A DNA stretch of 64,000 nt from an uncultured Streptococcus sp. GTDB lineage: Bacteria; Bacillota; Bacilli; Lactobacillales; Streptococcaceae. Location of the stretch: assembly GCA_963518035.1 (NCBI GenBank), contig CAUQIK010000004.1:3499-67498 (forward strand), read 5' to 3'. Below, one piece after another: positions 6,846 through 44,982 of this stretch. The notes beneath the pieces are model-generated. The model was given only the letters and a program-made list of their open reading frames with translations. It searched no databases and was not told the DNA's origin. The translations under genes were made by a program, and so were the position numbers. The stretch's first letter is position 1, and each line of letters begins with the position of its first letter.

Positions 6846-7874
<1,029 letters not shown>

Positions 7875-7884
7875 TTTAGATAGT

Positions 7885-7918
7885 AATAACTCCTTGAGTC
7901 ATCAGGGAGTTATTTTTT
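7885..7918 (+). terminator. ldh intrinsic terminator
   Basis: AATAACTCCTTGA...TCAGGGAGTTATT followed by a T-run. Confidence 0.8.
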
Positions 7919-7962
7919 ATCTGTATTTGAACTAAACATTTTATGAAGTTTACGTAAAAAAC

Positions 7963-8102
7963 AACATAACTTTAAAAGCTATCATGTCACAGTTTGGGCA
8001 TAAATCCGAAAAACTAATAATTAGATCTATACTCACGTTACAAAAGGTCTGGAGCAAGTAGTATTTGACGCACTTGATACCGTCCCATTAAATCGAAAGT
8101 AA
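7963..8102 (+). pseudogene. Remnant of a tyrosine recombinase/integrase 3' end
   Basis: Two adjacent frames read NITLKAIMSQFGHKSEKL / IYTHVTKGLEQVVFDALDTVPLNRK*, matching the integrase box II pattern (LKxIxxxxGH...IYTHV) with a frameshift near 8020. Confidence 0.65.
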
Positions 8103-8193
8103 AAAGTTTTGCCCCCTTTTTGCCACCTAGACAAAAAAAGAGCCCATCATACAGGCTAGAAAGCTTGATATGATAGGCTTTTTTTCATTTTGA

Positions 8194-9699
8194 TTAGCGT
8201 ACTGTACGGATACGCATTGTGTTTGTACGAACAGCTTCTCCAACTGGTACACCAGCTACGATAACGATATCGTCACCAGATTGTACAAGTCCTGCTTCAA
8301 CTGCTTTACGTTCAGCGATTTCGAACATATCGTCAGTTGATGATGGAGCATCTGTCAACATTGGGATAACACCCCAGTTCAACATCAATCCACGTTCTGT
8401 CAATTCATCGAATGTCAATGCCAAGATGTCAGCATTTGGACGGTATTTAGAGATCAAACGTGCAGTGTGACCTGTCTTAGTAAGTGTTACAACCAATTTG
8501 ATATCCATTGAGTTAGTAGCATCTTTAACAGCTGAAGCCATTACTTCTGTCTTAGAGTTACGTTCAAATGAATCTGAGTTCAAACGTCCGTATTCGTTAA
8601 GAAGAGTTTGAGCGTTCTTGTCGATTGTAGCCATTGTAGTTACTGACTCAAGTGGGTATTTACCATTTGCAGACTCACCTGAAAGCATTGTTGCGTCAGT
8701 TCCATCGATAACAGCGTTAAATACGTCTGATACTTCTGAACGAGTTGCACGTGGTTTTTCAGTCATTGTTTCAAGCATGTTTGTTGCAGTGATAACAACT
8801 TTACCTGCAGCATTGACTTTAGTGATAATCATTTTTTGGTAAACTGGAACCATTTCGAATGGTACTTCGATACCCATGTCACCACGAGCGATCATGATAC
8901 CATCAGCAGCTTCGATGATTTCATCCAAGTTATCGATACCTTGTTGGTTTTCGATTTTAGCGAACAATTGAACATGTCCATTTCCAGTTTCTTCACAGAT
9001 TGCACGAACTTCGTTAACGTCTTTAGCAGTACGTACGAATGAAATCGCGATGAAGTTGATACCTTGTTCAAGACCGAAGCGGATATCATCGTTATCACGA
9101 TCAGCAAGAGCTGGGAAAGGAATTTTAGTGTTAGGGATGTTAACACCTTTTTGTTTAGCAATTACGCCATCGTTTTCAACTTCAACTTCAAATTCACGAG
9201 TTGCATCATCTTTAGCAACCACACGAAGACCAAGTTTACCATCGTCAACCAAAACTTGACGACCAACTTCAACATCATCATAGATATCAAGAGCACCAGC
9301 AACGTTCAATGCAATCACTTCACGAGTTGATTTGATTCCTTGTTTAGTTGCAACACGGATTTTTTCACCAGTTTTGTATGAATACTCTTTAGCTTCACCT
9401 TCGAACAATTCTGTACGGATTTCTGGTCCTTTTGTATCAAGAAGGAAACCAACTTTTTTACCTGCAAGTTTTTCTGCAAGTTTAACAGTTGCCATACGCT
9501 CACCTTGTTCTTGGTGGTCACCGTGTGAGAAGTTGAAACGGAATGTGTTAGCACCAGCTTCAATCAATTTGGCAATGTTTTTAGCTGAAGCTTCAACATC
9601 AAGTTTTTCACCCCAGTATCCGTCATCACCAAATTTTTTACCACCACGGATTTCTACCGCAGGTCCCAAAGTTGCAACGATTTTTACACGTTTATTCAT
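8194..9699 (-). CDS. pyk: Pyruvate kinase
   Basis: KIVATLGPA, RFNFSHG, LDTKGPEIR, IMIARGDMGIE, MLSGESA. Confidence 0.98.
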   Translation of the reverse strand: MNKRVKIVATLGPAVEIRGGKKFGDDGYWGEKLDVEASAKNIAKLIEAGANTFRFNFSHGDHQEQGERMATVKLAEKLAGKKVGFLLDTKGPEIRTELFEGEAKEYSYKTGEKIRVATKQGIKSTREVIALNVAGALDIYDDVEVGRQVLVDDGKLGLRVVAKDDATREFEVEVENDGVIAKQKGVNIPNTKIPFPALADRDNDDIRFGLEQGINFIAISFVRTAKDVNEVRAICEETGNGHVQLFAKIENQQGIDNLDEIIEAADGIMIARGDMGIEVPFEMVPVYQKMIITKVNAAGKVVITATNMLETMTEKPRATRSEVSDVFNAVIDGTDATMLSGESANGKYPLESVTTMATIDKNAQTLLNEYGRLNSDSFERNSKTEVMASAVKDATNSMDIKLVVTLTKTGHTARLISKYRPNADILALTFDELTERGLMLNWGVIPMLTDAPSSTDDMFEIAERKAVEAGLVQSGDDIVIVAGVPVGEAVRTNTMRIRTVR

Positions 9700-38760: not shown

Positions 38761-39201
38761 CTATTTCACTTGATCTTCGAGGTTATTTTTCAATATCCTG
38801 CTAATATACTGACCATCTTTTCTACTGATGCAAGCTATTGCATAAGTCAATGGTGCTTTGTATACCTCTCCTCTATATGATGGATCATGATGGATCGGTC
38901 AATACAGGTATAGAATAATAGGCGTTCTTTTTATTTTAAGGTCAATAAACCATTTACCTCCTAGGTATTTACGGAAGGTTTCACCGATATAAACGGTCAA
39001 ATAATCCAACATCTTGCGGTCTGCTATCAAAGCATGGTGGACTTCGTAGTGAGCTAAAATCCAAGCCTCCAAATCATCCAAAGATTGCATGCTATAGTCT
39101 AAATTTAGCCCTTCTTTCTCCGCAAACTCCCTAGTAAAATAGTCCATCTTAAATCCAATTTGAAAAATCTATTCCTGAAAATCTTCTTGTGTGTAAGCCA
39201 T
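38761..39201 (-). pseudogene. Disrupted ~143-aa hypothetical protein gene
   Basis: AGGAG RBS then MAYTQEDFQE*IFQIGFKMDYF...; in-frame TAG at 39169-39171, 1-bp frameshift near 38935, 10-bp tandem duplication at 38877-38896; restored C-terminus YRGEVYKAPLTYAIACISRKDGQYISRILKNNLEDQVK*. Confidence 0.7.
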
Positions 39202-39339: not shown

Positions 39340-40203
39340 TTATGCTCCTTCTGTATCATCCCATTTATCTACGATCTCTCTTTCGCAATCCTGAAAACTT
39401 GCTAGATCTGGGAAATCTTTTTCCGTCATATAATCTAGCAAGAATTCTGCTACACTACTAAAGACAAAGCTTCTCTCATTACACTTGAACGTACTCAATT
39501 GTTTTGCAAAAGTTTCTCTAGTAGAAACTTTTGCACGATACTCTTTAAAGTCAATAGTTGATAATTGATAAATCTCCCGACTAAGTAAGAGATGGTAGAG
39601 TTTAATCCATTCAATATCCTGCTCACTAAAGGCTTGTCCAAAAATAAAATGATCTTTGTGATTTTCACAAACAGCCTTAAAAGTTTTACCAGACTTCGTC
39701 TTTTTTTCATCTAATTTAAAATGATAAAAAGCTACTTTATCAGAAGTCTTTTTCTGATAGAGCTTGAGAGCCTCTACCATTGGATAGCTGATGTACAATT
39801 TCCCTGCACCTGTTTCATTTGAAAATTCATTTATCATCTCCGAAACTTCTCTCATATTCTGATCAAAGTCTAATTCAGATCTAGAACTGTGATGATGGCC
39901 ATCCAAATCAAAAAACAAATAAATTTCCGAAACTTCTCTACGAGATAAGTTGACAATGTCATTTTGTTCATCTTTTTCTTTTTCATTTTCTAACTCAAGA
40001 ATGTAAGAAAATAGGTCAACATCATCTGCTTCACTTGCAAATGATTTTTTATACTCTGTGTAATGACGATAGAGAGAATAGATATTTGTTTCATAAGGAT
40101 AGATCTGTGATGCTTCAATCCCGATTGATTTAGCTATTTCTGATAAAAGTTTTGGTTCAGCTATCTTTCCTTCAACTACAAATACAATCCTGTTCTTACT
40201 CAT
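39340..40203 (-). CDS. Uncharacterised TOPRIM-like (RloB/AbiLii-like) protein, partner of the upstream ATPase
   Basis: IVFVVEGKIAE (TOPRIM Glu), IYLFFDLD (DxD), KLYISYPMVEA; start overlaps the ATPase stop. Confidence 0.6.
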   Translation of the reverse strand: MSKNRIVFVVEGKIAEPKLLSEIAKSIGIEASQIYPYETNIYSLYRHYTEYKKSFASEADDVDLFSYILELENEKEKDEQNDIVNLSRREVSEIYLFFDLDGHHHSSRSELDFDQNMREVSEMINEFSNETGAGKLYISYPMVEALKLYQKKTSDKVAFYHFKLDEKKTKSGKTFKAVCENHKDHFIFGQAFSEQDIEWIKLYHLLLSREIYQLSTIDFKEYRAKVSTRETFAKQLSTFKCNERSFVFSSVAEFLLDYMTEKDFPDLASFQDCEREIVDKWDDTEGA

Positions 40204-41305
40204 CAAAAGCACCTGCATTATACATCTTTTCCAAATTATGAGCCATCCGTAATTCTTTTACGGTTAGAGAAGACAGTTCCTTAATCTGGTTGTTCTGTAC
40301 GATAAAATAACAATCCGGTCGCAACAAATCATTCGACATGATGGTTGTATTGTGGGTTGTAAATACGGATTGAACTTCCCCATTTCTGATCTTTTTCAAA
40401 ATGGTTTCCGAAACTTCATTATGGTAATAGGCATCAAATTCATCGACGACCAAAAAGGTGATATCACTAAGTTGAATCATCCAATAGAAGAAAACCATGA
40501 TCACTTTGGTCCCATGTGATGCCACACTATAGATATTAACTGTACGGTTTTTGAAACGAACCATAATAACAGAATTCCCCTCAGAATCTTCCCCTCGTTC
40601 CAATGAATAGTTGATGTCAAATTCATGCAAAAAATGTTCTAATTCTTCTAATTTACCTGCATCCACAATCGCTGATGCGATATAACCTTGACTCGATTTA
40701 AATCCCTGGTAAAAATTTCCCTCTGATGTTCCCGAACCAAAAAATAACATCCCTTCAACAAATTCTTTAAACTTCAAAAAAATACAGTTTGTTTCATCTG
40801 ATAGTTCTAAATTTGTGTTATTAAATATGTATTTCACAAAAGATAAGGAGAGATCTCTCGTTTTTGTATTTAAATTTTCTGCGCCAACCAATTGGACTTC
40901 ACGCCTACCTGCCTGAAAATCTTCAAATATAACGCAGTTGTCATTGATATAGACTGCCTCATCAAATACCTCTGTCATATTTTTCTTTTTATAGTGATAA
41001 ACGACTCGGTCTTGATCAAACTTAAATTCATAAGAAAATACAGCAAAATCATCCGTACTTTCAAAATTTATATATTGATTGTAGTGATTTTCTTGTTTTG
41101 TAAAATCGGTTAAATGAGTAGTAATGTCCATCACCGCATAGGTCAAATTAGATTTTCCTGATCCATTTTTCCCATAAAGAACAGAATTTTTCACAATTCC
41201 ATTTTTGATACTTTCAGAATTAAAATTATATTTACCGGCAGATAAATCCCAAACAAAATCATTTTTAAAATTTTTGAAATTTTTCACCGAAAAACGTTGT
41301 AACAT
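40196..41305 (-). CDS. ABC-type/AAA_21-like ATPase (RloA/AbiLi-like)
   Basis: FSVKNFKNF N-terminus, Walker A GKNGSGKS, SHGT signature, Walker B LVVDEFDAYYH, H-loop FTTHN; AGGAG RBS; no permease gene linked to it. Confidence 0.8.
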   Translation of the reverse strand: MLQRFSVKNFKNFKNDFVWDLSAGKYNFNSESIKNGIVKNSVLYGKNGSGKSNLTYAVMDITTHLTDFTKQENHYNQYINFESTDDFAVFSYEFKFDQDRVVYHYKKKNMTEVFDEAVYINDNCVIFEDFQAGRREVQLVGAENLNTKTRDLSLSFVKYIFNNTNLELSDETNCIFLKFKEFVEGMLFFGSGTSEGNFYQGFKSSQGYIASAIVDAGKLEELEHFLHEFDINYSLERGEDSEGNSVIMVRFKNRTVNIYSVASHGTKVIMVFFYWMIQLSDITFLVVDEFDAYYHNEVSETILKKIRNGEVQSVFTTHNTTIMSNDLLRPDCYFIVQNNQIKELSSLTVKELRMAHNLEKMYNAGAFDE

Positions 41306-41448
41306 GACAAATCTCCTTAATCGTATTTTTTTTACGGTTGATTTATTATAGCATCTTTCCACCTGTTTTCCAAGTCAAAAGAAAGAAATTATGAAGATAT
41401 TCACGCTCTTTACAAAAGATCTTAATGGTATAATCTTCTCTTATATGA

Positions 41449-41744
41449 CTAACCAAACAGAACCTCCTGTATCCTAGAAAAGGAAAAACTACTAAGAAAC
41501 AGGCTTGCACCAACTTTAAACCTGCTGGACAATCCATCAAACAGCGTCCTAAAGCTATCAATCTTCCCTTAGAGAATGAGCATTATGAGATTGATACGGT
41601 TCTATTTAAAGGAACTAAGAAAACAACTCCTAAAAAAGTCGCATTAATCGAAAATTGGATTAACAACTATCCTAAAAAATGCTTGAACTACAAGTCACCC
41701 AGAGAATTTCTTATTGATAGCTAGTTTAAACTTGAAATTTGGCA
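41449..41744 (+). mobile_element. IS30-family (IS1239-like) transposase remnant with probable right end
   Basis: Open frame LTKQNLLYPRKGK...PAGQSIKQRPKAINLPLENEHYEIDTV|LFKGTKKTTPKKVALIENWINNYPKKCLNYKSPRE..*; 5' part and central DDE core missing; followed by AAACTTGAAATTTGGCA. Confidence 0.75.
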
Positions 41745-44642: not shown

Positions 44643-44880
44643 AAAAAAGTCCTCACACAAAAAACTTGTGTGAGGACGTCGATGCGCGGTACCACCTCAA
44701 TTATAGGGAATTTCCCTATCGCTCTGTCTCGCAATAACGAGATGCACTGTAAGGTGTGCTCACCGAATTTTTATGATTTCAAATTCTAAATAACATTCAG
44801 CCCAATTTTCATCATCATCACTTATCTGTTTTCAGCTACCACAGACTCTCTAAAAAGTTTAAATGATTACTTTTCTGAAT
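44643..44880 (-). promoter_or_regulatory. T-box riboswitch (Trp)
   Basis: T-box GGTGGTACCGCG at 44685-44696; terminator GTCCTCACACAA/TTGTGTGAGGAC plus T-run; AGAGA and GCTGAA stem-I motifs; candidate specifier TGG at 44802-44804. Confidence 0.9.
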
Positions 44881-44982
44881 GGTTAAATTATATCATTTTT
44901 CAACTACTTGTCAAGACTCTTTTAGCATTTTTTTAAACTATTCAAAAACTTCCCCTATAGAAAAGAGGAAGTTTGATAGGTA

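Follow-up and report, generated by a model that had tools for sequence, protein, structure and literature searches.

An ABC ATPase and RloB-like TOPRIM candidate pair of the PDC-M12 type in an uncultured Streptococcus

In the PARIS system the ATPase AriA sequesters and then releases its partner AriB (PMC11464382), and whether all pairs of an ATPase and a TOPRIM protein act like PARIS is described as an open question in a 2026 review (PMC13064643). The PADLOC candidate system PDC-M12 is a further pair of this architecture; its models were built from genes embedded in BREX, DISARM or type I restriction-modification (RM) loci, as one of 145 PDCs that were predicted, without testing there, by Payne et al. 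2024 (bioRxiv 10.1101/2024.01.29.577857). Here we analysed a 64,000-nucleotide stretch of an uncultured Streptococcus sp. (the window; GCA_963518035.1, contig CAUQIK010000004.1, positions 3,499 to 67,498) and found that, judged by model matches, a two-gene cassette at its positions 39340 to 41305 is a member of PDC-M12, already catalogued and no new kind of system. The family provides a large branch for putting the question of whether every ATPase + TOPRIM pair acts as PARIS does, and convenient test material exists in the version native to E. coli, carried by plasmids of 4 kb, and in natural streptococcal alleles from which the DxD motif has been deleted.

Assignment of the pair and its nearest relatives

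Both open reading frames (ORFs) are intact, and the 8-nt overlap between the stop of gene 1 and the start of gene 2, which an earlier reading of the letters without database searches (the sequence-only reading) had pointed out, is exact (ATGAGTAA at 40203-40196).

40196..41305, minus strand: gene 1 (A), PDC-M12A ATPase of 369 amino acids (aa), putative sensor/antitoxin; ORF read from 41305 to 40196, ATG at 41305, AAGGAG immediately 5'; PADLOC PDC-M12A (447 bits) and AAA_21
39340..40203, minus strand: gene 2 (B), PDC-M12B, probable RloB-like TOPRIM protein of 287 aa, putative nuclease effector; ORF read from 40203 to 39340; E11/E16, D99-x-D101, E144 and K176 intact

The assignment was made by hmmscan against the PADLOC-DB v2.0.0 models, in which the two adjacent genes each match their own PDC-M12 models nearly full length (gene 1: PDC-M12A, 447 bits, E 1.5e-134, 1-369/369, vs 136 bits for AbiLi and 54 bits for AriA; gene 2: five PDC-M12B models, best E 4.9e-51, 172 bits, over 6-246/251), with no architectural difference from that system. 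The streptococcal B is a divergent and longer variant (287 aa vs a family median of 250), 27-37% identical to most of its homologues. The sequence-only reading had suggested a possible uncharacterised subfamily; the pair is indeed distinct from AbiL and PARIS, but these full-length matches take the novelty away, even though the system matched is a candidate that awaits validation. No publication naming PDC-M12 was returned by full-text searches for its spellings, which mostly miss subscription literature, and literature searches on filamentous-prophage and small-plasmid contexts yielded nothing on the family; the accessible portions of PMC11381338, PMC11514479, PMC10568477, PMC12065111 and bioRxiv 10.1101/2025.07.10.664194 contain no mention of it. 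Systems validated under other names, for example in the DefensePredictor tables, could include a PDC-M12 homologue; the validated S. agalactiae TOPRIM toxin D60 (WP_000010056.1) is not among the PDC-M12B cluster members listed, which represent part of each cluster.

Gene 1 carries the complete set of ATPase motifs expected from the first reading, namely GKNGSGKS (45-52), SHGT (263-266), VVDEFD (286-291) and TTHN (316-319), and its residues G45, K51, S263, D288, E289 and H318 are invariant in 72/72 aligned sequences. It matches Pfam AAA_21 above the cut-off (E 5.4e-14), and because its AlphaFold2 model (pLDDT, a predicted score on the local distance difference test, of 90.8) matches retron PtuA, Rad50 and SMC heads (Foldseek best E 1.9e-11), gene 1 is, as modelled, a non-transporter ABC ATPase of the Rad50/SMC type. 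By sequence profile the nearest solved ATPases are AriA and PtuA, with AriA best (E 1.2e-7).

Gene 2 is probably a divergent RloB-like TOPRIM protein. Its three motifs are all present as first described, VVEG..E (E11, E16), FFDLD (D99, D101) and ISYPMVE (E144), and the residues concerned are kept almost throughout 138 cluster representatives (E11 in 136, E16 in 133, D99 in 138, D101 in 130, E144 in 138 and K176 in 138). A TOPRIM domain is defined by a conserved Glu after β1 and a DxD after a later strand (PMC12065111), and gene 2 shows this placement: in its model (pLDDT 91.6), E11 follows the strand at 5-10 and D99/D101 follow the strand at 91-99. RloB is matched weakly by 49/113 gene 2 homologues (E≤0.05; best 8.5e-6), and HHalign of a B profile against an alignment of 18 RloB sequences gave 81% (E 1.2e-5) over the half from E-G..E to D-x-D; a second run with another B alignment was weaker (57% over 21 columns), and no more than 4.7% was reached when one AbiLii sequence was set against the B profile. 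The sequence-only reading had also set SYPMVE in the place of the corresponding RloB motif, and SYPMVE is present, but HHalign covers only the first ~100 residues, and by motif order SYPMVE would be a candidate counterpart of RloB SNxxFE. In addition, the acidic pattern of gene 2 parallels residues E26, D30, D88, E90 and E122 of AriB (PMC11464382), as a pattern match made without an alignment.

Several results weigh against this assignment of gene 2. It falls into no Pfam or NCBIfam family, and the Pfam models of RloB, DUF4435 and Toprim in particular are not matched. Structurally, the TOPRIM fold is weakly supported: Foldseek of gene 2 against the PDB returned no match at E≤0.001, and the top-ranked VIA matches (OLD, Z 5.9, root-mean-square deviation 5.0, 136 aligned; PH0156, 5.1; BpOLD, 4.6; GajA, 4.5) fall in a score range that is common for this tool (48,161 chains). 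Sequence searches of the PDB with protein P0001 and with the B profile gave 0 matches. The architecture put forward by the sequence-only reading, an ABC ATPase with a TOPRIM-like partner, is nevertheless borne out by the AAA_21 match, the PtuA/Rad50/SMC fold of A and the conserved acidic residues of B.

We then compared the pair with the three groups of described systems that resemble it. AbiL/RloAB likewise has an ABC ATPase followed by a TOPRIM-type gene, its AbiLi model is the one matched by window A at 136 bits, and the B family appears to be distantly related to RloB across the half that holds E-G..E and D-x-D. It differs in that window B has no AbiLii or PF13707 match at E≤0.1, whereas a true AbiLii from locus L046 reaches E 8.5e-30, and in size: PDC-M12 ATPases have ~370 aa vs ~415-450, and window B is, as had been claimed, longer than RloB (177-238 aa). 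In a tree from a quick IQ-TREE search with two long-branch outgroups, the PDC-M12 ATPases form a clade of their own (36 rows, SH-aLRT 99) apart from 18 AbiLi/RloA-type ATPases; this separate clade, together with the lack of an AbiLii/PF13707 match in gene 2, rules out membership of AbiL/RloAB. A genome-wide search of genome G000 for PF13707 gave no match. PARIS shares the two-domain logic, supplies in AriA the best solved-structure match of the ATPase profile and has a similar five-acid pattern, but the window ATPase is ~95 aa shorter than AriA (464 aa), the best-matched stretch comprises the C-terminal ABC motifs only, and window B has no AriB or DUF4435 match in Pfam, PADLOC or PDB sequences. 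DUF4435 is matched at E≤0.05 by 0/113 gene 2 homologues; one UniRef name calls the relative P0494 'DUF4435 domain-containing', which the scans here did not reproduce. Membership of PARIS is ruled out by this effector without a DUF4435/AriB match. Finally, OLD, Gabija GajA, HEC-01 and HEC-04 also combine an ABC ATPase with a TOPRIM domain, and OLD C-terminal domains rank top structurally for window B, whereas the window pair is two genes without a UvrD helicase or retron partner and gives only weak matches to GajA and HEC-01A (≤21 bits). Membership of OLD class 1 or Gabija is ruled out by the separate ORFs, in the window and in 78/78 paired loci from GTDB, and by the lack of a conserved helicase neighbour.

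Some loci hold related genes beside the pair. A true AbiL pair stands just upstream of PDC-M12 in L046 (1604-3533), and in L041 (612-2570) an AbiLi-type ATPase is followed by a 233-aa gene that has no PADLOC match and does not align with the RloB motifs. In L045 (3683-4768), L062 (3641-4753) and L026 (3746-4828) the pair has another ATPase of the PDC-M12A type directly upstream, and in these duplicates the otherwise invariant Walker B Glu is replaced (by D, Q or N); the extra ATPases of L045 and L062 are each sister to their own neighbour in the tree, which suggests separate duplications.

Linkage, spread and loss of the DxD motif

As anticipated by the sequence-only reading, homologous pairs co-occur. 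The ATPase is directly upstream of B in 78/80 GTDB loci (the best 80, kept from 555 confirmed) and in 40/43 viral loci, and in each of the 5 exceptions gene B lies where the retrieved DNA ends. The stop of A overlaps the start of B in 73/78 pairs. The 19/401 Streptococcus genomes identified by a search with A are also those identified with B, and their pairs represent about five divergent lineages, and a phylum-wide search found the ATPase in 1/400 other genomes, with B downstream. At E≤1e-10 the B profile reaches 1,488 representatives (50% identity clusters) in several phyla. No third gene recurs with the pair, the largest neighbour cluster being present in 4/78 loci, and no fused A-B form occurs among the loci, within a search range of 157-503 aa. 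A longer streptococcal lineage (L097-L100) has an A of 395 aa and a B of 333 aa with NYPMVES and FDYE; the neighbour of these pairs resembles purH by translation.

Matches on plasmids amount to 14 records (one of them 2.1-Mb and chromosome-sized) and those on phages to 3. On the mobilisable E. coli plasmid NZ_CP023904.1 (L187; 4,011 bp) the pair, at 897-2796, accompanies rep and mobA with no further cargo annotated, and its guanine-plus-cytosine (GC) content is 33% vs 50% for the backbone; related plasmids of 4.0-4.4 kb are present in other Escherichia and in Raoultella. Near-identical copies of this pair occur in 9/5,426 E. coli genomes, on plasmids in 13/13 places. The filamentous Vibrio phage PQ189311.1 (L188) has the pair at 7075-8941, between its gene 1 and a regulator, with the ATPase labelled 'Paris_II AAA_21' and the partner hypothetical by the depositors; the pairs of this phage and of the E. 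coli plasmid both match the PDC-M12 models.

Within gene 2, the predicted catalytic DxD is flanked by the longest repeat of the gene:

39939-39926 and 39852-39839, minus strand: 14-bp direct repeat, two copies 87 bp apart, flanking the DxD of gene 2

An in-frame deletion of 29 codons between the repeats removes the DxD in genome G120 and leaves the ATPase intact. The same deletion is present in 6/31 close homologues that span the site (a listed subset, for which 6/31 is not a frequency), in three marker backgrounds and each time near a full-length allele (records L108 7374-8165; P0005, P0193, P0195, P0196, P0198 and P0200), and in many full-length gene 2 alleles the second repeat copy is altered. 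Independent deletions would be the simplest reading of this pattern as far as the sequences go, and recombination between alleles could also lie behind it. Two further DNA assemblies (X4 and X7) have the pair with both ORFs and motifs intact and without the 87-bp deletion. Genome G120 itself holds two PDC-M12 loci of different lineages (L102 and L094), DxD-deleted in the slot between trpX and dnaG and intact elsewhere.

Proposed mechanism and competing readings

We consider it quite likely that the PDC-M12 pair has a defence function, as predicted, and by analogy with PARIS we lean slightly towards a sequester-and-release mechanism. A and B would be made together, and a dimer or oligomer of the ATPase would bind and silence the putative nuclease B. 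A phage protein, or a change induced by infection, would act on the ATPase, freeing B, which would then cut host nucleic acid with metals held by E11/E16/D99/D101/E144; its target might be tRNA as a first guess (as for AriB), with DNA as the alternative. Such cleavage would bring the infected cell to a stop (abortive infection). An RloB-like toxin that is neutralised by an AAA partner has been described in E. coli (PMC10440598), and the loss of the DxD beside an intact ATPase in G120 is as expected if B were the costly part.

The genomic neighbourhood bears on the defence function. By our reading of the PADLOC matches, other defence genes lie within 6 kb in 20/78 loci, 16/20 of them with non-PDC types, a count that stands without a matched background and does not imply enrichment. 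These neighbours include RM, Wadjet, Septu, Bunzi, IetAS, CRISPR, DISARM, AbiL, SoFic and PDCs; the scan covered 469/470 cluster representatives, and the count left out borderline matches (generic helicases, helix-turn-helix proteins and partial models, e.g. in L010, L014, L020, L039, L045, L053 and L056).

A number of points tell against a sequester-and-release defence system. To our knowledge, no phage or toxicity assay exists for the PDC-M12 family. No clear defence neighbour is present in 58/78 loci, and PADLOC models are also matched by window genes with housekeeping roles (rpoD, dnaG and a transporter ATPase). At L241, a viral locus, the ATPase next to an intact B is split, and both genes are broken in G244. 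Among the better-studied relatives, AbiLii of L. lactis was non-toxic in E. coli, while that of F. nucleatum was toxic and AbiLi failed to neutralise it, so that a toxin-antitoxin logic was not confirmed for AbiL (PMC3985639). The similar pair HEC-01 did not protect when first tested and did so in a later test.

The failure of AbiLi to neutralise AbiLii in that one test also favours a reading in which A and B remain associated as a DNA nuclease under the control of ATP, as in OLD or Gabija, and nick or break down DNA that is invading or being replicated, in an anti-phage or anti-plasmid role, with no release of a toxin. The TOPRIMs of OLD and Gabija cut DNA (PMC10568477), and the TOPRIM domains of OLD and GajA (Z 5.9, 4.6 and 4.5) outrank AriB (3.7) as structural neighbours of B; however, these differences in Z are inside the noise of the tool, the family has neither a UvrD partner nor a recurring third gene, and none of the loci showed a fusion of the two (157-503 aa searched). 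We regard this nuclease complex as unlikely.

The plasmid copies raise another explanation, that the pair serves purely for addiction, as a toxin-antitoxin module that keeps mobile elements stable by post-segregational killing and senses no phage. A 4-kb plasmid with no other annotated cargo, and a plasmid location in all 13 E. coli places, would fit such a role; chromosomal copies that have repeatedly lost the DxD would be spared a cost, and NetFlax includes an AAA-neutralised toxin-antitoxin pair without defence against BASEL phages (PMC10440598). Yet a 369-aa ATPase with all catalytic residues invariant exceeds what an antitoxin needs, two of the plasmids with the pair already encode RelE/ParE systems, and the Streptococcus pairs are chromosomal and have no mobility genes of their own, so that we hold a pure addiction module to be quite improbable.

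We also see a small chance that split ABC-ATPase/TOPRIM immunity has in PDC-M12 a third branch next to PARIS and AbiL, one that differs in mechanism. Such a branch would combine a compact ATPase that responds to a trigger of its own, a family-specific nuclease site (the invariant SYPMxE and K176), a repeat-guided deletion of the DxD as an off-switch in oral streptococci and, in other Bacillota, a duplicate ATPase lacking the Walker B Glu as a second sensor or regulator.

The slot between trpX and dnaG

The cassette is AT-rich, as first described (GC 0.328 vs 0.396 for the whole window), and both of the flanks named by the sequence-only reading were verified: on one side lies the TrpX ABC operon (NF041285, 466 bits, above cut-off), with a T-box leader upstream of it (44669-44886, minus strand) that is the window's only Rfam match at gathering score, and on the other side dnaG, identified by its own translation and weak DnaG-like matches. 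Other features of the locus are as follows.

41345..41373, minus strand: predicted sigma-70 promoter with extended -10; 10/12 consensus with TG
41449..41721, plus strand: IS30 transposase remnant with an internal deletion, outside the conserved system; NF033563, E 1.6e-7
38761..39201, minus strand: pseudogene for a hypothetical protein of 143 aa, which occupies the slot in its own right; stop at codon 11 and a frameshift

In 60 relatives (the best 61 matches less G021, whose match is near a contig end) the slot is empty in 55, holds the 143-aa gene alone in 4 and holds the pair in 1, with no other defence gene. It is an occasional insertion site; a defence hotspot at this position was rejected, given the 55/60 empty relatives. 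The cassette is 98% identical to copies in the same slot of genomes whose flanks are 81-84% identical (including a named S. oralis record), which indicates that it is accessory and was recently transferred. Of the horizontally acquired island that had been proposed, the horizontal acquisition is thus upheld, but the defence island is not. We infer that the cassette moved by recombination through the shared flanks; comparisons of the junctions, which included no formal search, showed neither a target-site duplication nor a mobility gene linked with the pair. The identity of the flanks to the S. oralis record would place the host in the mitis group of Streptococcus.

A role in housekeeping or repair, or a passenger in decay that has no function in its host, is suggested by the structural likeness of the ATPase to Rad50/SMC, by the pseudogenes on both sides and by two RNA-labelled runs whose contigs cover parts of the pair only (no evidence either way on transcription), but is very improbable for a pair that is found in only 19/401 congeneric genomes, keeps its ORFs and conserved motifs intact in the window and in assemblies X4 and X7, and is 98% identical across hosts with 81-84% identical flanks.

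The extended -10 that the sequence-only reading assigned to the cassette is exact as a sequence (TGCTATAAT at 41353-41345), but a promoter scan gave 14 sites vs 15.3 expected in shuffles, so that the consensus alone is no evidence. A cassette promoter at 41345-41373 is plausible because it is positioned behind the trp operon terminator (41831-41798), and the predicted site lies inside the block common to other copies (block start 41400).

Both of the degenerate neighbours noted at the outset, the IS30 remnant and the pseudogene, were recovered. The internal deletion of the IS30 remnant is relative to locus L108, where a longer remnant remains, and loci L003 and L004 have different DNA at this position. 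The 143-aa gene has no Pfam or NCBIfam match, only an Atlas lead to YwmA/DUF3806 clusters. It is intact in relatives, without the pair in 4/60 and behind the pair in L086, with a further copy in L143 (1028-1459), and in L003 and L004 the pair abuts a truncated 3' part of it.

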